From Thermoplasmatota archaeon (GTDB lineage Archaea; Thermoplasmatota; Penumbrarchaeia; Penumbrarchaeales; Penumbrarchaeaceae), in NCBI GenBank assembly GCA_965234725.1, contig CBDDUX010000026.1:32001-96000 (forward strand): 64,000 bases of DNA, written 5' to 3'. Both the position numbers and the translations under genes were made by a program. The notes under the pieces are model-generated. The model did not search any database and had not been told where the DNA came from. It saw only the letters and a list, made by a program, of their open reading frames with translations. This document shows, piece by piece, positions 49,160 to 60,199 of the stretch (positions within the stretch are counted from its first letter, which is position 1; each line of letters begins with the position of its first letter).

Positions 49160-50011
49160 ATGTCCAGGGAGAAACCAAGGATCAAGGTCATCCTGATAGC
49201 ACAGGATTACGAGATGAGGATAGCTTCAGATATCCTCCTCCTAACCTATTACATGGATAAGGAGCTTGGAATTGAACCCTGGATAACGATCTTCGATAAC
49301 GGTTCCAAGGATAGGACAAGTATAATTGCAAGGAAACTTGGAGCGACCCTTATCAGGTCCAATGAGAGAAGAATAAAGAAGGATATTGTCGAAGAGGTTA
49401 TGGCCACTGGTATAAAGAACAATATCAACACACTGATAATCATTGACGTCCAGGGTGGGAACACAGCTGATGATGCGATCAGTCTCATGGCAAGGTCCAT
49501 CGCTGAGGGCGTTCGGTTCGCATCCGCATATATAAGACCCGAAAAAGGAATGAGCGGGATCGGATGCTGGGCAATAGACAAGGGAATACTTGTCAAGATC
49601 GGGAGGGGGGAGGAGCTGGACATTCAGAAAAGGATACTGGAACTCGCTTCCAAACAGGACCTTGAACTTTGGGCGATATCTGAAGAGATCTCTCTTCAGT
49701 CCAAGAAGAACAGACGTAAACTTTTCCAACTTTTCAAGAGGTCACCTGGTGAAGTGATGACCGGTCTTATCAAGTATCATCCGCTTTCGGTCTATGGTCT
49801 GACAGGACTGATACTATTATGCCTGGCATTGTTCAGTGGGTTCTATACAGTGGATTATTTCTACAGCCACAACGAGTTGAACTACTTCCCGGCTTTCATA
49901 ACCATGGCCCTTGCAATGATTGGTGGATTTTTCATGGTGGCTGGTCTTTTCCTGAACACATTGAACATACTTGCTGAGAGATTGGAGGCAATGGCCAAGT
50001 GGAACGAGTGA
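49160..50011 (+). CDS. Degenerate GT2 (DPM-synthase-like) with two C-terminal TM helices
   Basis: DNGSKDRT retained, but DxD and SGFRA motifs missing; C-terminal 'HPL..YG..G' followed by two TM helices. Confidence 0.7.
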   Translation: MSREKPRIKVILIAQDYEMRIASDILLLTYYMDKELGIEPWITIFDNGSKDRTSIIARKLGATLIRSNERRIKKDIVEEVMATGIKNNINTLIIIDVQGGNTADDAISLMARSIAEGVRFASAYIRPEKGMSGIGCWAIDKGILVKIGRGEELDIQKRILELASKQDLELWAISEEISLQSKKNRRKLFQLFKRSPGEVMTGLIKYHPLSVYGLTGLILLCLALFSGFYTVDYFYSHNELNYFPAFITMALAMIGGFFMVAGLFLNTLNILAERLEAMAKWNE

Positions 50012-50952
50012 GACTGATGGGCATAAGGAGAAGGTTGAAGGTCGCGGTCGCGATTCCCGCAAAGAACGAGCAGAGGACAATAGGTACTATCGTTACCATC
50101 TCAAGGGAATATGCTGACAAGGTCGTTGTGATCAATGACGGATCCACGGATAAAACAGCTCTAGTCGCTCTATTGGCCGGTGCCGAAGTATTGTCTCATC
50201 GGATCAACAAAGGAAAGGGAGCTGCCATTGCCACAGCCCTTAAATGGGCCATGAAAGAAGAGATGGATATACTGGTATTCATAGATGGTGACGGTCAGCA
50301 CGATCCAGGTGCTATCCCGGATCTGGTAGGACCTATTGTGAGAGGAGAGACGGACATCACCATCGGATCAAGATGGCATCATGATCAAGGCCTCAAGGAG
50401 ATGCCAATTCACCGACTCCTCGGGAATTGGATCCTCAGCACAGCCACATCCCTGTCGCTTTCAAAGATGATAAGAGATTCCCAATCCGGTTTCAGGGCCT
50501 TCCATAAAAGGACCTTCCCCGCTTTCATGCAGTCGATCGAGATGGGATTCGCAGTGGAATCCGAGATGATAGCACTGGCTGACAAGGCAGGTTTCGGATG
50601 GAAGGAATTGGGAATAAAAGCTTCCTATAATGACCTTGATGCCAATACCGAGAGCTCTTGGTATCATGGTCTATCGGTACTTGGAAAGGCACTTAAGGTC
50701 ATGAGGCTCCAGAAACCAGGGAGGTTCTTTGGAGCTTTCTCCTTATTATCCTTCCTGATCGTAGTGGCCCTTGCTTTCTATGGAAGGATTTCCCATCCTG
50801 ATGAGAAGCTCCTTCCCCTTTACCTCCTTTACTTGATTTCTTTCTTTATTATTTGCGGTGGATTTTTTATGTTCTCAGCTATAATTGTTTCAGGTATGGA
50901 CAGGATATCCGAGAGGATATTCAAATTGATGATATCACTCCTTAAGAGATGA
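49999..50952 (+). CDS. GT2 family (DPM-synthase-like) with C-terminal TM helices
   Basis: IPAKNE, DGSTD, NKGKG, DGDGQHDP, GSR, DSQSGFRAF, ESEM. Confidence 0.9.
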   Translation: MERVRLMGIRRRLKVAVAIPAKNEQRTIGTIVTISREYADKVVVINDGSTDKTALVALLAGAEVLSHRINKGKGAAIATALKWAMKEEMDILVFIDGDGQHDPGAIPDLVGPIVRGETDITIGSRWHHDQGLKEMPIHRLLGNWILSTATSLSLSKMIRDSQSGFRAFHKRTFPAFMQSIEMGFAVESEMIALADKAGFGWKELGIKASYNDLDANTESSWYHGLSVLGKALKVMRLQKPGRFFGAFSLLSFLIVVALAFYGRISHPDEKLLPLYLLYLISFFIICGGFFMFSAIIVSGMDRISERIFKLMISLLKR

Positions 50953-51013
50953 TAGTTCAAATAATGATAATGGGTCAATACGCTTTTAATATCGATGATC
51001 AGAGTCCCTTTCA

Positions 51014-51196
51014 ATGGAAATGATGGTGGAGATCAAGGCATCCGTCCGGTCCTTGGGCTCATGTATTCTCGCTTCCTGTGACAGCTGCAGGTCCTATGGT
51101 TTCGGTGATAACGAGTATGAGGCGGTCCTCAGATTGAAATCAAATATCAATCAGATGTACGGATGTATATTCCCCATGGATAATATCAATATTTAA
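51014..51196 (+). CDS. Stand-alone HicB-like (UPF0150-like) small protein
   Basis: beta-beta-beta-alpha pattern '..ILASCDSCRSYGFGDNEYEAVLRLK'. Confidence 0.45.
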   Translation: MEMMVEIKASVRSLGSCILASCDSCRSYGFGDNEYEAVLRLKSNINQMYGCIFPMDNINI

Positions 51197-51447
51197 TTTT
51201 ATTATTTAGGGTATTAAGAGTATTAGTAAATAATTATAATGAAGCTTTTTATAAACATGTTTTATATTGGATATATACATGTTGAACAATATTTGACCTA
51301 CTAAAAAGTATATAATATAATAGTGCAAATATGTAATTTTATATGCATATTTAATCTATGAATCAGTCATTATCACTTTTGATAACAAATGACTTTATAT
51401 ATGACATGTATGATATATTGAATACCCCATCCCCCGGGGGTTGAACT

Positions 51448-51618
51448 ATGACTACAAACAATGTGATATCCCTCAAAGAGGTAGAACTGGAGGTAGACAA
51501 GAAGAGCCTCCTAAGGAATTGGGACTCGATCTCATCGATCGGTAATCCCGCCTTCGAGACCAATTCGAGGGAGATCCTTCTTTTCAGGTATCCCGATAGA
51601 AAAATGGAAAGGGCCTGA
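51448..51618 (+). CDS. Micro-protein 1 (56 aa) of the R-x-I-phi-phi-phi-x-Y-P family
   Basis: MTTNNVISLKEVELEVDKKSLLRNWDSISSIGNPAFETNSREILLFRYPDRKMERA; TATA upstream; full-length paralog of 54484..54651. Confidence 0.75.
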   Translation: MTTNNVISLKEVELEVDKKSLLRNWDSISSIGNPAFETNSREILLFRYPDRKMERA

Positions 51619-51776
51619 TCACAAGAATGGATGAAATCCTCAAATTGGTCGTAGATAGAAAGGTTCAAGAGCAGTTCTATTTAGGATCATTTCAGGTTTA
51701 ATACTATTAAATATTTAAATTTGGAAATGTCTTTCAATGTCAGGTTTAATATAACATGTTCAACATATTCTAATTT

Positions 51777-52085
51777 ATGGTGGGTGATAGCAAAGGCTGT
51801 AGAACCCCCGTTAAAAAGAAGGGTTCCAAGGATCCTGATTGTCTTGAGGAGGTCATCGATCGATTCAATAAAGGTATCGATGATGTCGATGAGGCTATAA
51901 TGGACGAGGATAGTCTGACCAATGGTCACGATAAGGTCTCACTCAAGGATTCCATCATCGAGAACCACTTCACCAAACCATCAGATATCGAGAAGGATAT
52001 CTCTTGGAAAGAAGAGGAGACAATACCTATTCACGAACTCGTCATCAGGAATCCGAAGGATCGGGGCCTGAAGAAGAGAAAGTGA
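51777..52085 (+). CDS. Hypothetical acidic protein; C-terminal HELVIRNP may be a divergent copy of the micro-protein motif
   Basis: 102-aa ORF downstream of AT-rich promoter-like sequence. Confidence 0.55.
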   Translation: MVGDSKGCRTPVKKKGSKDPDCLEEVIDRFNKGIDDVDEAIMDEDSLTNGHDKVSLKDSIIENHFTKPSDIEKDISWKEEETIPIHELVIRNPKDRGLKKRK

Positions 52086-52152
52086 TCCATATTCTTATCA
52101 TTATCGATAATCTGATGAACGGTATTTTAAGCAAGGTAACCGATGATTACCT

Positions 52153-52335
52153 ATGAGGGCATCTTTGGAGCTTCCTACAAGGATAAGGAAGAAGGGTGAT
52201 ACCTTTATTGCCGAATGTGCTGAGATGGGTTTACATGAAATTGGAAATACCGAGGAAGAGGCCAGAGAGAGATTGATGATCAAAGCTAGGAAGTTTCTTT
52301 TATCATCTATGGTGGAAAATTCCATACTGACATGA
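52153..52335 (+). CDS. Stand-alone HicB-like (UPF0150-like) small protein
   Basis: 'GDTFIAECAEMGLHEIGNTEEEARERL' matches the HicB N-terminal pattern (F.A.C......G.T.EEA...L). Confidence 0.65.
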   Translation: MRASLELPTRIRKKGDTFIAECAEMGLHEIGNTEEEARERLMIKARKFLLSSMVENSILT

Positions 52336-52478
52336 ACGTGAAAGAGATACCCTTAAATAAATCCGTTCGTTGCAACCGCCCGGAGATGAATGTGGTGGAG
52401 ACTTCTACTGACTTTGACCATGATGATGCCAACAGGAGGGAAAGGAGAATTGTCATCCTTTCCTATCCAATTTCCTGA
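52332..52478 (+). CDS. Micro-protein 2 (48 aa)
   Basis: MNVKEIPLNKSVRCNRPEMNVVETSTDFDHDDANRRERRIVILSYPIS; ATGA overlap with the HicB-like gene. Confidence 0.65.
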   Translation: MNVKEIPLNKSVRCNRPEMNVVETSTDFDHDDANRRERRIVILSYPIS

Positions 52479-52573
52479 AATGATCTAGACAATTGGCAAT
52501 TGAACAGTACATTTGGTTTGATTTTCAATTGATGTAACTGAGATGGTCTTGTTTAAATAATTAATAGGATTAG

Positions 52574-52672
52574 ATGTTCTTGATGGATCTATTATTGGAG
52601 AGGAGGAACGATGAGGTCGAAAGACCTCTGAAGAGAGAGATCGTGATCCTCACATATCCCCTAGGAAATTGA
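52574..52672 (+). CDS. Micro-protein 3 (32 aa)
   Basis: MFLMDLLLERRNDEVERPLKREIVILTYPLGN; TTTAAATA about 20 bp upstream. Confidence 0.6.
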   Translation: MFLMDLLLERRNDEVERPLKREIVILTYPLGN

Positions 52673-52830
52673 ACCTGATATTCATTGAACACAGCCTAGG
52701 TTTTCCCATGTACAAATCGAACCAAGGCCCATGCTTTCCTACCTTCATACTGATAGAAATGTTACCTAAATTGATACTGAACATAAAAGTTTTATATACC
52801 CAGAGCAACAATTATTTATTAGGTGATCAA

Positions 52831-52935
52831 ATGGATGCTTCATACAGGCTTCGACAGTTCAAGGATCAAGCCTCAAGGCTCCATTCGATCTACCTGACAA
52901 ATGTCCCTTTCTCCAAGGACAAGAAAAGGACATAG
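52831..52935 (+). CDS. Micro-protein (34 aa), possible divergent family member
   Basis: MDASYRLRQFKDQASRLHSIYLTNVPFSKDKKRT; TTTATATA at ~52791, AGGTGA RBS, T-tract right after the stop. Confidence 0.5.
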   Translation: MDASYRLRQFKDQASRLHSIYLTNVPFSKDKKRT

Positions 52936-53074
52936 ATTTTTTTTTCTGGAAAAAACCTCTATTAGGAACGAAAAGACACCCCGGAGGGGCCCTCTGAAAC
53001 CCACTATGGGCTCCTTCAATTCGACCTGATCAATGTGTAACAGGTTTTAAAGATAATATTACCATTCGGATATT

Positions 53075-53296
53075 ATGAACGATAAGGAGATGTTCCTCAA
53101 GAAGATGAGGGCGATGTCCTTGATAAAAGCCGAGCTGATGAGTTCCGGAAAGGATCCCGAGATAATACAACGGTTACTGATGGATGAATATGACCGGAAG
53201 GAGGAAAACGGGATCTCGAAGATGATAGAGAGGATCGACCTCGACAATGGAGAGGACTTTAAAGGATTGATGAAAATGGTATTTAAAAGGATCTGA
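53075..53296 (+). CDS. Small helical hypothetical protein
   Basis: 73-aa ORF with purine-rich coding-like composition; TATA-like TTTTAAA upstream. Confidence 0.55.
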   Translation: MNDKEMFLKKMRAMSLIKAELMSSGKDPEIIQRLLMDEYDRKEENGISKMIERIDLDNGEDFKGLMKMVFKRI

Positions 53297-54241
53297 TCCT
53301 CTTTGGAAATCTGAACATCTATCGAGACCTTTCGCAAATTAGTAATCTTACTATCTATCCGGAATGATCTGATTTTTGGTATGAAAATTGGGCATCATAG
53401 TATCGCCCTTTTTTCATACCCACGCAAAGCAGTGTCTGTAATTGACGCTCTGTTTTGCTGTGTTTCGAACTTTCGATGTGATGTAGTTATGACGGGAGAA
53501 AGTTACGAAAAAACTCGCTCCACATTTTCATAATCTTTTTTGAACAACAGTTCATGAGAGTTTTGTGATACTTTGTTCAATATTCTGATAATTGAAGACC
53601 AAAATTAAAATACCCACTTGATCAATGGATAATGTGGTAACACTGTGGGACCCTGCTCAGGACTACCACCCGGAAATCCATTTTTTTCAAGGTCCCAAAG
53701 ATACCTCTATTGAAACCACGAGGGAAATAGCAAAATATGTCGCACCGGGGCCCGGATCTATGGCGGGAAACGGGCCCACTTCTTCTTCTGAGTATTCATC
53801 CTTCAGAGTTGCATCCTGAAAGTAGAACGATATGTGCATCCGTTATTCAGTGTTCAACCGGGTTCTTGTTGAGAGAACAATAGGTATTTGAACTGTTCAA
53901 TATACGATTGTTCACATCCGTTTTTTACTTTTGATAATCCAATAAACTGGTTTATATATGTTTAGACATTTATTCCATCTGGTGTGGCCTATTTATATCG
54001 TTAGGGGGAAAATGGCAAAGCTTCCATTGAACCTCTCTTTCATTATTGACCAGTGCCGATGATAAACAGAGAGTGTGAGCTCCGTGATGGAAGTTGCGGT
54101 ACTATCAGCGAAAGCCTTCAGGGAAGATCCTTTCTTTAGATAAATATTGGAACAACCGTTATTTGAACACTTTTTTTGAAATTTCGTATTATTATCATTC
54201 GATGTAATCCATCGGGTTCCCTTTATATAGTTCAGCAATAG

Positions 54242-54352
54242 ATGGTTTCCACAGTGAGAAAAATGGGAACCAACGGAAACAAAGGATCAACAACGGAAGA
54301 GAGCGATCTTCACCACCAGCGACAGATCGTGATACTCACCTATACCTTCTGA
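54242..54352 (+). CDS. Micro-protein 4 (36 aa)
   Basis: MVSTVRKMGTNGNKGSTTEESDLHHQRQIVILTYTF; TTTATATA about 20 bp upstream. Confidence 0.6.
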   Translation: MVSTVRKMGTNGNKGSTTEESDLHHQRQIVILTYTF

Positions 54353-54483
54353 AAATATTGGTTCCTGCTGACCGATCCTTCTTTTAGGTCCATTGACAGT
54401 TTCCTTGACATTGTTGATAGTCGAATTTATATATTTGAAAGGACTGGCTTGGTTTGCATCCAATATCCCCCAAAGGTGATAGC

Positions 54484-54651
54484 ATGACCAAGAAGATCCA
54501 GCCAATGAGAGAGATCGAGATGGAGATAGGCAGAGCAGGTCTTATCTCCAACATGGATAAGATGGAATCTTCGTTCGGTGGGGACATGTTCACCCATTCA
54601 AGGGAGATCATTCTTTTCCGATATCCACCCAAGGCCGGAATGAAGCTTTGA
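54484..54651 (+). CDS. Micro-protein 5 (55 aa)
   Basis: MTKKIQPMREIEMEIGRAGLISNMDKMESSFGGDMFTHSREIILFRYPPKAGMKL; AGGTGA RBS and TTTATATA upstream. Confidence 0.75.
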   Translation: MTKKIQPMREIEMEIGRAGLISNMDKMESSFGGDMFTHSREIILFRYPPKAGMKL

Positions 54652-54815
54652 TATGGGATTGACCTTCAATATAACCCCCAATTTTTTAATAATTTAGTTC
54701 AATTTCTTTGTGTACATTTGGTCGGGACTGTTTTCCTCCATGGTTACCACTCTCGATTTTTATTTTTTAAACGTTTAAGACAAGGCCTTCATATAGGTAT
54801 TAATAATTGTAAAAG

Positions 54816-55799
54816 GTGTTTTATTTGGTAGAACATAGGGATATCCTGAAACTGGATATTGAAAGGGAGATAGATAGGATAAGATCCTTTCTCAATGACC
54901 ATTTCAATGAATATAGAAAAGATGGTGCCATTATCGGTCTTAGCGGTGGAATTGATTCCGCAGTGGTTTCCGCACTCCTTGTGGATACGATAGGTAAGGA
55001 AAAGGTGAAAGGTATCATCCTTCCCGAAAAGGAATCGAACCCTATCAGCAAAGAACTTGGGATCCAACAGGCTGAGAAATTGGGTATCGAATACGAGGTA
55101 TTCGATATAACCGGGGTCCTAGAGGCCTTTGGAACATACAGTATGAGAGATGAGGCGGTCAGAGAAGTATTTCCCGATCATACAGAAGAATGCAGGATGA
55201 AACTCGTTCTTCCCGGGGGCCTCATGGAAAATTACACTTACAACATCTTTTCCTTGACGGTGACCTATCCAGATGGAAGGGAGGAAACAAAAAGACTTCC
55301 AAAGAAGGTCATTAACAGGATACTTGCCGCAACAGATACAAAGCAAAGGACCAGGATGATGGCCTTATACTATCATGGTGAGAGTCTATTTCGTTCTGTT
55401 GTGGGAACGACAAATCGTCCGGAGACCTTACAGGGTTTCTTCGTGAAATACGGTGATGGTGGAGTGGATATCGAACCCATTGCCCATCTTTACAAGAACC
55501 AGGTATACCAGCTTGCAGACCATTACGGGGTCGTCAAAGAGATAATAGAAAGAGAACCCTCCCCTGATACGTTTTCCTTCCCTGTAAGCGATGAGGAATT
55601 CTTCTTCAGGATCCCGTACGAGATCCTTGATCTTGTCCTCTATTGTTGGGAGAGGGGTATCGGAATTCCAGAGGCATCAAAAATTACTGATCTTAAAGAG
55701 GAGCAAGTTGAAAGGGTATACCGTGACCTTACCTCGAAATTCAAAGCTACCAAGCACTTGAGAGAAATGACTCCCTCTCTGTTGAAAATGGGATTTTAA
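54816..55799 (+). CDS. nadE: NH3-dependent NAD+ synthetase-family protein
   Basis: IGLSGGIDSAV, KQRTRM, GTTNRPE..GFFVKYGDGGVDIEPIAHLYK.QVY, PSPD. Confidence 0.85.
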   Translation: MFYLVEHRDILKLDIEREIDRIRSFLNDHFNEYRKDGAIIGLSGGIDSAVVSALLVDTIGKEKVKGIILPEKESNPISKELGIQQAEKLGIEYEVFDITGVLEAFGTYSMRDEAVREVFPDHTEECRMKLVLPGGLMENYTYNIFSLTVTYPDGREETKRLPKKVINRILAATDTKQRTRMMALYYHGESLFRSVVGTTNRPETLQGFFVKYGDGGVDIEPIAHLYKNQVYQLADHYGVVKEIIEREPSPDTFSFPVSDEEFFFRIPYEILDLVLYCWERGIGIPEASKITDLKEEQVERVYRDLTSKFKATKHLREMTPSLLKMGF

Positions 55800-55830
55800 C
55801 GTTCATTAGGTCAATAAGAAGGTCAGTTCA

Positions 55831-57003
55831 ATGAAGGTCCTTTTCCTTCCAAAGGAAGGTCACCCCCTTAAACGTGTTAGATTGACCGAGCTTTTCATGC
55901 GGGAATTTGTGTCATTAGGTAATGAGATAGATTGGGTACTGACCTCATTTGAAAATGAAAGGAGTAACATTCATGTTCCCTTCGGAGGAGGTCTTCTATC
56001 CAATCTCATTCTACCTTTCTATAGAATGAAGAAGTTAAGAATTTCAGAGAAGATCCTTAGGAAGGAGAAACCTGATATCATCATAGCAAATGATGGGATA
56101 ATTGAAGGTTTGATAGCATCGAGATTATCAAGAAAGTACGACATCCCATTTTGCTACTACCTCTCATCCCTTTTCACAGATATGGAGAAGAACGAGTTTC
56201 TTGCAGGTGGAAAACCAAAAAATCTCGTGAAATGGTTGGCAATGGTGATCAAGGAACCATTGAGGACCCGTGTTATCAAGAGATGTAATGTATTCCATCC
56301 AATTTCGGATGCCATGGGTCGACCATTTATTAAGATATGTACTGGTATTATCCATCCTCTTCCTCTCTGTCCTTCACATATATTTTTAGAGACAGAAGTG
56401 GGGTCGACAAGTGACTTTGACATTGGAATTGAATTGGTATATACAGGCCAGGTCACACCGAATAGAAAGATAGAGCTTCTTTTAGAGATCGTCAAGGCCC
56501 TCAAGGAAGGAACTGATAAGAATGTTAATTTGACAATAGTAGGCAGGATCTTCTACAGTAGTTATGAGAGATTCCTTAAGAAGAAAATGGCTCAATTAGG
56601 GATAGAGGATCATGTTGAGATCATCCCTGAGGTCCCAATCAGTAGAATACCAGCAATAATCAGGAAGTCAAACATCGGACTCTGTCTCCTACCACCGATA
56701 AGATCATTTATTGTTTCCTCCCCGACCAAGGTTGTTGAATATCTATCTCTTGGAATACCTGTTGTCGCAAATAAAGAGATAGAGGATCAAAAGGTAATAA
56801 TTCAAAATTCCAAGGGTGGTTTCTCGCCTGCATATGATAAGAAAGAGATAGTTGATTCTATTCTTGCATTAGTAGGGGAGGCGGATATGGCTGTTGAGAT
56901 GGGCCTTAAGGGTAGGAGATGGATACAGGAGAACAGGAACTATCAAAAAATGGCAGTGGAACTGGATTCTCTATACAATGGGATAATAGGAGATAGACCA
57001 TGA
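55831..57003 (+). CDS. Glycosyltransferase family 4
   Basis: LVYTG..R, SSPTKVVEYLSLGIPVVAN. Confidence 0.85.
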   Translation: MKVLFLPKEGHPLKRVRLTELFMREFVSLGNEIDWVLTSFENERSNIHVPFGGGLLSNLILPFYRMKKLRISEKILRKEKPDIIIANDGIIEGLIASRLSRKYDIPFCYYLSSLFTDMEKNEFLAGGKPKNLVKWLAMVIKEPLRTRVIKRCNVFHPISDAMGRPFIKICTGIIHPLPLCPSHIFLETEVGSTSDFDIGIELVYTGQVTPNRKIELLLEIVKALKEGTDKNVNLTIVGRIFYSSYERFLKKKMAQLGIEDHVEIIPEVPISRIPAIIRKSNIGLCLLPPIRSFIVSSPTKVVEYLSLGIPVVANKEIEDQKVIIQNSKGGFSPAYDKKEIVDSILALVGEADMAVEMGLKGRRWIQENRNYQKMAVELDSLYNGIIGDRP

Positions 57004-57377
57004 GGATAATCGGTATTGGAGTCGATGTCATCGATATTGATAGGGCTCGGGAATTATTTGAAAAGGAGAGGACCCTAGAGAGGGTTTTTACTGATAATGA
57101 GATCAATGCAAGCAGTCAGAGGGCTGACAGGTTGAAGAACCTTGCCGGATGGTTCGCCCTGAAGGAAGCAGTCCTGAAATCCCTAAAGGCTCCAAGGGAC
57201 ACTGGCATTTTATTGCAGGATATCGAGGTCCTCCATGGTGAGAACGGTGAACCAGTATGTGATCTGCATGGAAAGGCAAGGGATATCTTCCTGGATTCCG
57301 GAGGGGAAGAGTTGATGGTCTCCGTTTCCCATTCTGAAAAGTCAGCCGTGGGAGTCGCCATCTGTATAGGAAGCTAA
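57000..57377 (+). CDS. acpS: Holo-ACP synthase (phosphopantetheinyl transferase)
   Basis: IGIGVDVIDI.R, FT..E, LAG.FA.KEA..K, G.P, VSVSHS. Confidence 0.9.
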   Translation: MRIIGIGVDVIDIDRARELFEKERTLERVFTDNEINASSQRADRLKNLAGWFALKEAVLKSLKAPRDTGILLQDIEVLHGENGEPVCDLHGKARDIFLDSGGEELMVSVSHSEKSAVGVAICIGS

Positions 57378-57437
57378 CATGTCTGGCCACAGCTATAATG
57401 ATACGAATTGTGTTTAGATCTTGGTGAGAAATTGGAG

Positions 57438-57578
57438 ATGAAGACAAACACCGGCAGAACAACTTTCATAGATAACAATGAAATAGAAAATTACCGGATA
57501 TTCGACCTGGAAGGAAGTGATACTAGGGATTGTTCACGTCCATGCAGGCAGATAATCATGCTCAGGTATCCCGAGTGA
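57438..57578 (+). CDS. Micro-protein 6 (46 aa)
   Basis: MKTNTGRTTFIDNNEIENYRIFDLEGSDTRDCSRPCRQIIMLRYPE; GGTGAG upstream. Confidence 0.65.
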   Translation: MKTNTGRTTFIDNNEIENYRIFDLEGSDTRDCSRPCRQIIMLRYPE

Positions 57579-57646
57579 TTCCAAGATTAGGGTAATAATA
57601 TAATTTCACTGGACCAGTTAAATAGATAGGGTTTTACTGTAATATT

Positions 57647-57769
57647 ATGGATAATGAAGACTCCAATGAGAATAAAAGGAGAATTAACTCTAAGGAGGTC
57701 AAGATCAGTTTTCTTTCTTATCCTTTTGAAATAAAAAAGGTGAAAAAAGATAGCGTTGAGATCGAATGA
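57647..57769 (+). CDS. Micro-protein 7 (40 aa)
   Basis: MDNEDSNENKRRINSKEVKISFLSYPFEIKKVKKDSVEIE; TTAAATA about 28 bp upstream. Confidence 0.55.
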   Translation: MDNEDSNENKRRINSKEVKISFLSYPFEIKKVKKDSVEIE

Positions 57770-57822
57770 GATGAAATTTTCTTTTTTATTAGGGTAATAA
57801 AAATTGAGGATAGGATATTTTC

Positions 57823-58875
57823 ATGATCATCGCTATTTTTCTTAACACACCTGCTCAAGTTCATTTTTACAAGAATATTTGGAGGAAATTAAGAGATGAT
57901 GGTCATAAAGTATACCTTATTGCTAGGGATTACGGTGAGACCATCCCACTTTTAAAGGAGATGAATATTGACCATTTCCAGTATCTTTCTCCTCCGGAAT
58001 CTAAAATTGGAAAGGTCCTGTCTCTTCCTTTTGCAGTCATTCGGGTAAATAGATATCTCAAAAATAAAAAGGTCGACCTAATCACTGGATTCGGTGTCTA
58101 TGATGTATTGGTTTCCATTTTAAGAAGGAAACCAGTAATTGTGTTCTCAGATTCTGAACCTAGAATAAATAAGAAGACATTTTCTATCCAATTTGATTTA
58201 CTTAAACCTTTTACAAATCTTTTCATTACTCCCTCATCCTTCGGCCAGGATATGGGGAAGAATCATAGAAAGATCAATTCTTTTAAAGAGTTAGCTTACC
58301 TCCATCCAAAGTATTATTCACCAAGTGGTGATATCTATTCACTACTTGGTATTGAAAAAGGTGAGAAATTCATCATATTGAGATTTAATGCCTTCGATGC
58401 ACTGCACGATGCAGGTGTAACAGGATTTTCCGATGATATGAAGATAAAAATGGTAAGAGAGTTCTCCAAGAAGTGCCATGTTTTTATTTCATCAGAGAAA
58501 GGTATTCCAGATGAGATCAAGGATCATGTGTTGGATATTCCAAAAAGCAGAATTCATGACGTTTTATCTTATGCTCATTTGCTGATAACTGATACACAGA
58601 CGATGACAACTGAGGCTGCCCTTCTTGGAACACCTGTTGTAAGGTGCAATTCCTGGGTTGGGGATAATGATATGGGGAATTTTATTGAACTGGAGAACAA
58701 GTACAAGATGATATATAATTTCAACAATGAGAAATTGAGTTTTGAAAAAGCAAATGAACTCATTAATAAAGATGATATCAATGAAATCTATGATAGAAGG
58801 AGAGATTTGCTATTAGAAGATAAAGTTGATATTGTAGATAAGTATTGTGAGATCATCTATGAGTTCAATAATTGA
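57823..58875 (+). CDS. DUF354-family GT-B fold protein
   Basis: PAQVHFYKN, ARDY..T..LL, DSE, KELAYLHPKYYSP, ILRF....A.HD, QTMTTEAALLGTP. Confidence 0.85.
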   Translation: MIIAIFLNTPAQVHFYKNIWRKLRDDGHKVYLIARDYGETIPLLKEMNIDHFQYLSPPESKIGKVLSLPFAVIRVNRYLKNKKVDLITGFGVYDVLVSILRRKPVIVFSDSEPRINKKTFSIQFDLLKPFTNLFITPSSFGQDMGKNHRKINSFKELAYLHPKYYSPSGDIYSLLGIEKGEKFIILRFNAFDALHDAGVTGFSDDMKIKMVREFSKKCHVFISSEKGIPDEIKDHVLDIPKSRIHDVLSYAHLLITDTQTMTTEAALLGTPVVRCNSWVGDNDMGNFIELENKYKMIYNFNNEKLSFEKANELINKDDINEIYDRRRDLLLEDKVDIVDKYCEIIYEFNN

Positions 58876-59362: not shown

Positions 59363-60199
59363 ATGAAGAGAATGAAGATGGGCATCTATGTAATAGTCAA
59401 AGATAATGAGATGCTGATCTCATCAAAACTACTTCTTTTAAAATATAAGCTCCTTCAAAAAGGGATAACCCACATAGAGATCATAGGTATCGACAATGGT
59501 TCCAATGACCGCACTGCAGAGGTCATGCATTCATCCGGATTCAGGGTCGTAAAACACAATACGACAAGAAGCCTGGAGAGGAACGTAGAAGAGATCAAGA
59601 AACAGGTGGAAAAGTACCAGCATGAGATCATTGTTGTTCTTGACGGAAATTCATCTGTAGAGATCGATACCGTGGTGGAACTGATAGTGTCTTTCCTGGA
59701 TGCCAAGAAGAAACCGGGTATGGGATATATCTCCGAGGTTTCGGATGAAGAGATCGTTAATATGAACTGTCTTATTTTCCTGGCACCTGTTTTCCAGCAA
59801 ATATCGATCAAAGGTTCCAACATCAGAAGCGAGGAACATCTTATATCGTTCGGAAGATCCATGGGTCTAAATGTTGAAGCGAGAAAACCTGTTTTCACAA
59901 GAGATAGCAAAGAAAGCCATCTTCAGAGGATCCCATTGAAATCCGCATGGGACCTGATAAACCAGTACAAGAAGACCTATCCGTTGAGGTATTACGGATT
60001 CATCTCCCTTGCATTCTTTGTTTTTGCCCTTGCCCCCGGGATATATGAGATAAATTACATGATGAAATATACCCACTTGAATTACCCTTCCTTCTTCCTA
60101 ACAGTGGTCCTTGGTGGAATTGGAATGGTATCATTATCCCTGGGTTTGATAATGAATGCTTTGAAGGTCCTTTCCGATAAGGTCAGAGGTATGATGTGA
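59363..60199 (+). CDS. Degenerate GT2 with C-terminal TM helices; paralog of 49160..50011
   Basis: DNGSNDRT retained; 'LDGNSS' in place of DGDGQH; 'YPL.YYG..S' and 'HLNYPSFF' tail. Confidence 0.7.
   Translation: MKRMKMGIYVIVKDNEMLISSKLLLLKYKLLQKGITHIEIIGIDNGSNDRTAEVMHSSGFRVVKHNTTRSLERNVEEIKKQVEKYQHEIIVVLDGNSSVEIDTVVELIVSFLDAKKKPGMGYISEVSDEEIVNMNCLIFLAPVFQQISIKGSNIRSEEHLISFGRSMGLNVEARKPVFTRDSKESHLQRIPLKSAWDLINQYKKTYPLRYYGFISLAFFVFALAPGIYEINYMMKYTHLNYPSFFLTVVLGGIGMVSLSLGLIMNALKVLSDKVRGMM

Follow-up and report, generated by a model that had tools for sequence, protein, structure and literature searches.

Small proteins with a common C-terminal motif in a glycan island of a Thermoplasmatota archaeon

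What is encoded by the short open reading frames (ORFs) that crowd an apparently intergenic part of an archaeal glycan locus, and why do several of them end alike? The question is raised by the window, a stretch of 64,000 nucleotides from a Thermoplasmatota archaeon, in which an initial annotation made from the letters alone described an unannotated family of at least seven micro-proteins with the C-terminal motif R-[EQR]-I-phi-phi-[LF]-[RTS]-Y-P (phi, a hydrophobic residue). The translations, motifs and coordinates of these seven plus-strand ORFs are all reproduced here. On the evidence of their codons, the ORFs are genuine protein-coding genes in which selection acts on the peptide and not on a DNA site, with the motif under strong purifying selection. 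The shared tail is probably a docking element for one common partner, and this partner is possibly a neighbouring glycosyltransferase.

Members of the family and their codons

The genome of the window (G000, an assembly of 3,535,829 bases) was compared with a syntenic sister genome, G003, at ~71% nucleotide identity, a divergence sufficient for reading selection. In the six-frame translation of the whole of G000, the motif was found as a regular expression seven times, always on the plus strand and within the window (51568-57724). A broader expression gave 19 matches against four in the reversed genome, or 14 against three when restricted to short ORFs with a short tail; the motif is thus rarer in control sequence. 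As proposed earlier, a profile was also run on the six-frame genome (129,616 segments). It has 12 columns and was built from 41 distinct members from other genomes and public protein sets, the G000 sequences being left out; noise begins at 11.5 bits. The top eight segments (24.2-12.7 bits) are six of the seven ORFs and two copies on the contigs C40 and C22, so that the family extends beyond the window. The members and the doubtful seventh ORF are as follows.

51448..51618, plus strand: L1, long form, 56 aa, ...SREILLFRYPDRKMERA; top profile match, 24.2 bits
52386..52478, plus strand: S1, short form, 30 aa from the ATG at 52386, ...RRERRIVILSYPIS; 14.4 bits
52574..52672, plus strand: S2, short form, 32 aa, ...KREIVILTYPLGN; 17.5 bits
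54242..54352, plus strand: S3, short form, 36 aa, probably 29 aa from the ATG at 54263, ...QRQIVILTYTF (Thr instead of Pro); 12.7 bits
54484..54651, plus strand: L2, long form, 55 aa, ...SREIILFRYPPKAGMKL; 21.8 bits; directly upstream of an NAD_synthase-family gene
57438..57578, plus strand: C-type member, 46 aa, ...DCSRPCRQIIMLRYPE; 20.1 bits
57647..57769, plus strand: seventh ORF, 40 aa, VKISFLSYP followed by a 14-aa tail; membership doubtful
G000:C40:66364-66600, plus strand: extra long-like copy, among the top eight of the independent profile
G000:C22:43415-43639, minus strand: extra long-like copy, among the top eight of the independent profile

The claim of at least seven members in the stretch is therefore supported by the independent profile for six ORFs but not for the seventh. 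This ORF (57647-57769) is absent from the top 30 of the profile, has no counterpart in the G003 stretches scanned, and shows neither a TATA nor a Shine-Dalgarno-like element in the upstream scan. Two sequences initially listed as weaker candidates, HELVIRNP (51777-52085) and HSIYLTNVP (52831-52935), also fall outside the top 30 and are not counted as members, although both ORFs are real conserved genes. The starts first assigned are kept except for two ORFs, S1 and S3, for which the likely true ones are 52386 (not 52332) and 54263 (not 54242). The earlier start of S1 would give 48 aa, and the G003 orthologue begins at an ATG aligned with 52386. The G003 orthologue of S3, which ends in ...TYPF, has GGTGAG 5 nt before an ATG matching 54263.

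Evidence for coding comes from the codons of the motif. Calculated for 26 copies (12 genomes), the entropy averages 0.92 bits at the first codon position, 0.27 at the second and 1.51 at the third. These copies were chosen by their peptide motif, and positions 1 and 2 are accordingly constrained in part by the selection of copies; the free third position is the informative part, and in this sense the codon-level conservation claimed at the outset is confirmed. The freedom of the wobble positions excludes a DNA or RNA element. When the nine motif codons were pooled over six G000-G003 ortholog pairs, the proportion of changed synonymous sites (pS) was 0.66 (25.5 changes in 38.8 sites) and that of changed non-synonymous sites (pN) 0.045 (5.5 in 123.2), giving a pN/pS of ~0.07; in the parts upstream of the motif, pN was 0.34 over the six pairs. 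For whole ORFs, the ratio of non-synonymous to synonymous substitution rates (dN/dS) is 0.15-0.52 where dS is unsaturated, namely 0.15 for L1 (whose orthologue is 80% identical), 0.30 for S2, 0.43 for S3 and 0.52 for the C-type member, while dS is saturated for L2 and S1. The check by dN/dS thus also agrees with selection on the peptide. In S2, the motif and tail differ from G003 by five synonymous changes and one non-synonymous change, and S1 shows three wobble changes within the motif, all synonymous. Orthologues of the C-type member are found in G003:C2 and G014:C60, with C-x3-4-C-R-x-I-x-x-LRYP in common. Contigs of a ~95%-identical strain from another marine-sediment study carry two variants in the motif region of L1, at 51582 and 51591 (one contig, depth 7.8), both at third codon positions and both synonymous when the codons are read. 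No RNA sequencing run containing the stretch was found. Of the reading frames of the nine long-form loci, the sense frame is the only one that is stop-free in all nine.

It is extremely improbable, in view of these results, that the ORFs are not genes but the remains of a larger gene now decayed, or copies of a DNA or RNA element. The AT-rich nature of the region (GC content 0.37-0.40 versus ~0.45) and the small multi-copy mobile element within it might be expected of such remnants, but free wobble positions and a motif pN/pS of ~0.07 would not be. Nor has a larger gene been found from which fragments could derive: blastx of 50950-54820 and 57370-57830 against all 3,720 genome ORFs of at least 120 aa gave none at E <=1, no longer homologue occurred among 7,999 scored candidates, the only two long matches among 1.84 billion representative proteins were repeat artefacts lacking the motif, and alignment of the peptides by hhalign to the two neighbouring glycosyltransferase-like proteins was non-significant.

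Subtypes and distribution

The family consists of three subtypes: long, short and Cys-containing. Long forms of ~55 aa have an N-terminal segment, 'LEVxRxSLLSNLDSIG', with the pattern x-[LM]-E-[VI]-x-[KR]-x-S-L-L-x-N-x-D-x-[IV], and continue with ~12 variable residues, [ST]-R-x-I-[LI]-[LV]-[FL]-R-Y-P and a basic tail. Nine of them from seven genomes (G000 and six others), L2 with L1 and seven more, align without internal gaps, and public proteins align likewise. Short forms of 25-36 aa have a charged variable N-terminus, a basic patch and R-[EQ]-I-V-[IL]-L-[ST]-Y-P followed by one to five residues, and the Cys type has [DE]-C-x-(x)-R-P-C-R-x-I-x-x-L-R-Y-P. The sole part under strong constraint is a C-terminal R-x-I-phi-phi-[LF]-x-Y-P with a short, often basic tail, 1 to 20 residues lying between the motif Pro and the C-terminus across copies; variable N-termini had been noted before, and the comparison bears this out.

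A TATA-like box 40-60 nt upstream, or a Shine-Dalgarno-like GGTGA or G-run before the ATG, accompanies most copies. For example, L1 has a TATA-like box ~54 nt upstream, and L2 has GGTGA 6 nt before its ATG and a TATA-like box at -58. This layout is common to long forms across genera. A TATA box or Shine-Dalgarno-like element of its own, which the initial annotation gave to most copies, is seen for most of them but not for all. The long form is predicted to be largely disordered: the AlphaFold2 model built from 19 sequences has a mean predicted local distance difference test score (pLDDT) of 61.9 and only two helices of four residues, and its best-defined block (pLDDT 79) is residues 41-50, which is the motif. 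None of the members, as read, contains a hydrophobic stretch longer than ~6 residues.

The distribution was surveyed in 37 genomes of the class, 24 of the window's own family and 13 from outside that family. Members of some subtype, read by eye, occur in 12 of the 24. A long-form profile matched eight of the 37 genomes, all eight among the 24, and a strict back-translated DNA pattern for the short form gave 10 sites in six of the 37, again all in the window's own family, with none for the reversed control pattern. Neither search matched any of the 13 genomes outside. As judged by these subtype-specific patterns, the range of the peptides within the 37 class genomes does not extend beyond a single Thermoplasmatota family.

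An exhaustive profile search of 1.84 billion representative proteins returned 24 matches, 22 of them of 46-90 aa; the other two are the repeat artefacts mentioned above, summed matches to repeated 'LE.ER..LL' segments. A word-indexed search of 5.8 billion proteins returned 17, all of 53-70 aa, from Thermoplasmatota metagenome-assembled genomes and named at most 'hypothetical protein'. For the short forms, the latter set yielded the window's own two proteins and three weak matches (E 0.045-6.9), all of which bear the motif when read. The family is accordingly unannotated only in part, since long-form orthologues are public as hypothetical proteins, while genes of the short and Cys types are hardly ever called. 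With the family alignment, a GTDB-wide scan found only two genomes, both already known as carriers, a metagenome scan found one contig of 1,062 nt, and IMG/VR held no relative that would indicate a viral origin. No Pfam-A family matched any of the seven ORFs at E <=1, and no NCBIfam family matched L1, L2, S1 or the C-type member; the nearest ESM Atlas clusters are unnamed, with scores of 0.75-0.76, below the useful range. A full-text search of the literature found no paper on the family, and the sole match to a motif string was in an unrelated plant virus preprint. The earlier statement that no described family matches is upheld by these searches; the micro-protein family is undescribed, and it is notable that several paralogues sharing one tail lie within an archaeal glycan island.

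Candidate partners of the tail

Three genes have to be considered as neighbours or possible partners.

49160..50011, plus strand: GT2L, divergent membrane protein resembling family 2 glycosyltransferases (GT2), 283 aa from ATG; overlaps the start of the GT2 gene; no Pfam match
50017..50952, plus strand: GT2, polyprenyl-phosphate glycosyltransferase-like; candidate docking partner; PF00535, 6e-22
54816..55799, plus strand: NAD_synthase-family (PP-loop) gene, directly downstream of L2; alternative partner pathway; PF02540, 2e-51

The gene order of the window is NMD3, S-adenosylhomocysteine hydrolase, S-adenosylmethionine synthetase, cupin, GT2L, GT2 and the 3.8-kb island of small genes, followed by the NAD_synthase-family gene, GT4, AcpS, the C-type peptide, DUF354, a second GT2L, two GT2, SDR and polysaccharide deacetylase. 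The peptides are thus embedded in a glycan locus, as first described, with GT2, GT4, DUF354, polysaccharide deacetylase and cupin genes present. The best solved relative of GT2 is the dolichol monophosphate mannose synthase of P. furiosus (5mlz, 8e-17), with GpgS and ArnC next. For GT2L, Pfam and PDB sequences gave no match; hhalign aligns it to GT2 with 99.2% probability over its full length. Both GT2L copies (49160-50011 and 59363-60199) carry DN.S.DRT and LD..GGN.A.DA instead of the motifs usual in GT2, and in the hhalign output GT2L is devoid of ~25 residues before the strand equivalent to GFRAF. The overlap of the GT2L and GT2 genes suggests a heteromer of an enzyme and its degenerate paralogue.

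A docking mechanism can be outlined from these elements. The peptides would be separately transcribed, small, largely disordered cytoplasmic proteins restricted to the lineage, and the motif would serve as a short linear element for docking, in which a hydrophobic strand with a Tyr-Pro cap is added in trans to a folded partner. With their different N-termini and separate promoters, the paralogues may bring several inputs, as alternatives, to a single site. The most likely partner would be the GT2 resembling dolichol-phosphate-mannose synthase (DPMS) together with its GT2L paralogue, and the peptides, as small subunits with an accessory or regulatory role, would adjust how much lipid-linked sugar is supplied for the glycan of the cell surface. 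The docking of a short strand on a common partner, suggested in the initial annotation, fits the disordered model with the motif as its only better-defined block, but it is still a proposal. The model as a whole, an accessory or regulator docking on GT2, is possible and is put forward tentatively.

Gene order offers some points in its favour. A long form lies downstream of the GT2L-GT2 pair in eight genomes, co-directional in G000, G003, G006, G010, G012 and G023 and, in G013 and G008, convergent with GT2 at a distance of 44 nt from the GT2 stop. The same place is occupied by a short-type ORF in G015 and by a weaker short-like ORF in G018, the latter at 10.3 bits, which is below the noise of 11.5 bits, and an ORF ending in '...RRILLLKYP' lies just upstream of the second GT2L-GT2 pair of G010. 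In g1, the genus of the window, the peptides and GT2L were both found in G000 and G003 and neither was found in G001, G002 and G004; this co-occurrence is not independent evidence of interaction because the genes share one island. A complex prediction with GT2L, GT2 and the long form as partner scored 0.48 (runs 0.47, 0.48 and 0.51; verdict 'weak support'), whereas the best control, with GT2 replaced, scored 0.15 and unrelated peptides 0.00 and 0.00. The runs agree in at least 54% of contacts and the pLDDT of the partner is at least 38; the output came without an interface.

Other observations weigh against a docking on GT2. Synteny with GT2 is not obligatory, nothing being found within 2.5 kb downstream in G019 or 0.9 kb in G022. 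The two long-like copies on C40 and C22 adjoin genes for an AsnC-type helix-turn-helix (HTH) protein and PRC-barrel proteins, far from any GT2L, and the C-type copy in G003:C2 is outside a glycan context. In G010, G023 and the metagenome contig L036, the long form is equally close to an operon of carrier-protein and NAD_synthase-like genes. As for the complex prediction, the mark was reached in calibration by 58 of 80 solved complexes and two of 110 mismatched pairs, but at 0.60 or below by only seven of the 80 and by both mismatches, so that passes in the range of 0.48 are false more often than true unless the pairing was probable to begin with; the run also differed from the calibration in its three chains and shallow alignments. 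The prediction nudges the odds towards GT2 as weak support and proves nothing.

A further step may be imagined, in which the peptides would be interchangeable plug-in subunits of a heteromeric dolichol-phosphate-sugar synthase (GT2 and GT2L), the paralogues, each with a promoter and an N-terminal tail of its own, would compete for one strand-docking site, and the set expressed would switch or tune the lipid-linked sugar and hence the surface glycan; this is unlikely. The idea that a peptide supplies a strand missing from GT2L was rejected, as GT2L keeps 'GCWAID', taken by eye as the equivalent of GT2 'GFRAF', and it is the preceding helix that is lost instead.

The common partner might be sought elsewhere, in the carrier-protein pathway of the island (acyl carrier protein, NAD_synthase-family PP-loop enzymes and AcpS). 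The order of L peptide, carrier protein and NAD_synthase-like gene recurs in G010, G023 and L036, and in the window the NAD_synthase-like gene comes immediately after L2 and the C-type member immediately after AcpS, while the C-type gene of G014 precedes an ORF read by eye as acyl-ACP (acyl carrier protein) thioesterase. However, the long forms of G013 and G008 are without such a neighbour and the carrier-protein gene of G000 sits on another contig, C3, which leaves a partner in this pathway doubtful. The probability is similarly low that the motif is an element of self-association, through which the paralogues would form homo- or hetero-oligomers or a cross-beta assembly as the functional unit, the strand being flanked by Arg/Glu and Pro. 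Hydrophobic residues at motif positions 3-6 on both strand faces, the predicted disorder of the monomer and the presence of several paralogues with the same strand per genome, in tandem in G000, G003 and G010, are what such an assembly would show, but the invariance of Arg, Tyr and Pro speaks for a specific fit over generic aggregation, and the unrelated-peptide controls point weakly to a placement on the glycosyltransferase pair that is peptide-specific. A C-terminal tag, that is, a degron or sorting signal imposing the same fate on otherwise unrelated small proteins, for example rapid turnover by a protease or unfoldase, would explain why the conserved part is C-terminal and common to subtypes with unrelated N-termini, and a loosely similar ending of strand, Pro and basic tail is found in two further conserved small proteins from the island, ...ELVIRNPKDRGLKKRK and ...IYLTNVPFSKDKKRT. 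This too is rather improbable: no protein of at least 100 aa in G000 has the motif above noise, which is surprising if the tag is a general one, the motif lies anywhere from 1 to 20 residues before the C-terminus, and no protease or secretion gene is linked.

Two readings known from other small ORFs fare worse. Precursors of ribosomally made, enzymatically modified peptides are expected to have a conserved leader and a variable core. The ORFs here are small, tandem and paralogous, and one subtype has two conserved Cys, but the pattern is inverted: a nine-residue C-terminal motif is conserved, the N-termini vary, and there is no hypervariable core after a conserved leader. No radical-SAM, YcaO, lanthipeptide, peptidase or transporter gene was found within ~8 kb on either side (Pfam, 17 flanking genes), and the copies lie in differing contexts. 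The lack of a nearby maturase together with the conserved tail argues against such precursors, which are very unlikely. Antitoxin and adaptor-mimic roles, mentioned with that of modified peptides in the initial annotation, likewise find no support, and no maturase, toxin or protease gene was found near the copies. Leader and arrest peptides of the SecM, TnaC and MgtL type are small ORFs with a conserved C-terminal part containing an essential Pro, and the archaeal ORFs recall them in their size, variable N-termini and conserved C-terminal part with an invariant Pro; L2 and the C-type member, moreover, are upstream of same-strand enzyme genes and might control them in cis by ribosome arrest. 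However, the long forms of G013 and G008 are convergent with the next gene and cannot be leader ORFs there, the short forms have no consistent downstream gene, and the two facts together speak against a cis-acting leader. Conservation of the long form along its whole length, including the N-terminal segment, is unexpected for a peptide acting in the tunnel, and the stop comes 1-20 codons after the Pro. A role in cis is hence highly improbable.

The docking of the peptides on GT2 has its closest functional analogy, if the proposal holds, in DPM2 and DPM3. These small membrane subunits (<100 aa) of eukaryotic dolichol-phosphate-mannose synthase bind and stabilise or regulate a GT2-family enzyme, and the archaeal peptides, likewise small, are proposed to act beside a DPMS-like GT2. 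The eukaryotic subunits have transmembrane helices, whereas the archaeal peptides are without such a stretch and without sequence similarity to them, have many paralogues, and bind only putatively. Prokaryotic small regulatory proteins and microProteins are also comparable in their 25-60 aa, own promoter, lack of an enzymatic fold and presumed binding to a larger protein. The difference is that the archaeal paralogues share one C-terminal linear motif and that the genome has no larger 'parent' protein with the motif: no long ORF scored above noise in the profile, blastx found none, and hhalign gave probabilities of 0.5% to GT2L and 0.1% to GT2. Without a larger motif-bearing protein, the peptides are not truncated copies of their partner, unlike classical microProteins. 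Three resemblances seen by eye were dropped on the same grounds. EILLFRYPDR resembles DILLLTYYMD in helix 1 of GT2L and is indeed the best hhalign local match, but at the said 0.5% and E 0.13; IVILT resembles the first strand of the G010 GT2L, unsupported by hhalign; and the order of helix plus strand resembles a GT2 segment, at the said 0.1%.

Several short motifs are superficially similar. The PIP-box, a ligand motif for PCNA, reads Q-x-x-[LIM]-x-x-[FY]-[FY]; it is short and often C-terminal, with a hydrophobic position 4, an aromatic position 7 and basic flanks, and 'QIVILTYP' fits Q-x-x-I-x-x-Y. However, Gln stands at position 1 in only 7 of the 26 copies, position 8 is Pro in 25 and Thr in one and is never aromatic, positions 2-3 are hydrophobic in the archaeal motif, and the context is glycan synthesis and not replication. 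The HbYX tail of proteasome activators has hydrophobic-Tyr-X as its last three residues, whereas Tyr is never penultimate in the archaeal peptides, where 1 to 20 residues follow the Pro. A likeness to HicA/HicB lies in the small adjacent ORFs, 52153-52335 abutting S1. The description of that ORF as HicB-like is not supported, since neither it nor the peptides match HicA (YcfA) or HicB in Pfam or NCBIfam at E <=1, and its 4-nt overlap with S1 is not kept in G003, where S1 starts ~50 nt further on.

The island as a whole

As read from the DNA, the island is a dense block of about eleven small genes. Five further ORFs, 51014-51196, 51777-52085, 52153-52335, 52831-52935 and 53075-53296 (60, 102, 60, 34 and 73 aa), are 60-79% identical at the amino-acid level in G003, with dN/dS of 0.10-0.14 where dS is unsaturated, and have no significant Pfam or NCBIfam match. 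Two non-coding blocks, 52936-53045 and 53690-53785, are ~98-100% identical between G000 and G003, whereas DNA identity in the flanking genes is ~71%. Each block occurs once in the genome; neither matched an Rfam family at E <=1 or a tRNA, and neither was found outside the genus. They are possibly small RNAs of a new kind. A stretch of ~192 nt at 53369-53560 looks like a miniature mobile element. It is missing in related strains (contigs of four runs of one study, with a joint from 53368 to 53561 and five other letters between) and at this place in G003, and it is multi-copy elsewhere in the genome (e.g. C100, C63, C3, C27, C31 and C69) and in relatives; a weak snoR4a match (E 0.77) lies inside it. 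Within the 5' end of the NAD_synthase-like gene, 54830-54865 gave a weak CRISPR-DR47 match (29.2 bits versus a gathering threshold of 39, E 0.037), most likely by chance.

The chemistry of carrier proteins is represented in the glycan island by AcpS (PF01648), one or two NAD_synthase-family PP-loop genes, an acyl-carrier-like protein and SDR, at 54816-57377 in the window and at L017:1-2193, L020:6835-7137, L036:448-1060 and G000:C3:2223-2453; the G014 ORF read by eye as an acyl-ACP thioesterase is also of this kind. Such chemistry in a glycan island is probably unusual for archaea. These genes suggest an acylated or amidated glycan. On the other two contigs, a three-gene module is duplicated (G000:C40:64537-66600 and G000:C22:42607-43980), consisting of genes for a double PRC-barrel protein, for an AsnC-type HTH protein (in C22 cut down to 90 aa) and, divergent from this second gene, for a long-like peptide.

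No part of archaeal genomes is less well charted than the small proteins, since gene calling passes over most short ORFs. In the present case, an apparent 'gap' of 3.8 kb within a glycan island is packed with selected small genes, six of which form one family with two copies elsewhere. The reach of the finding is narrow, one family of uncultured marine-sediment Thermoplasmatota with no cultured member met among the searches. Whatever its function, the family is a clean test case for the annotation of small ORFs, with a 12-column profile, three subtypes and codon evidence. If the tail docks on GT2, the peptides would represent the first case in archaea of a small protein that assists or regulates the synthesis of lipid-linked sugar, and would provide an example of several regulators with one common docking site. 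If the peptides are in addition interchangeable plug-in subunits, they would constitute an undescribed layer of micro-protein control over the variation of archaeal glycans.

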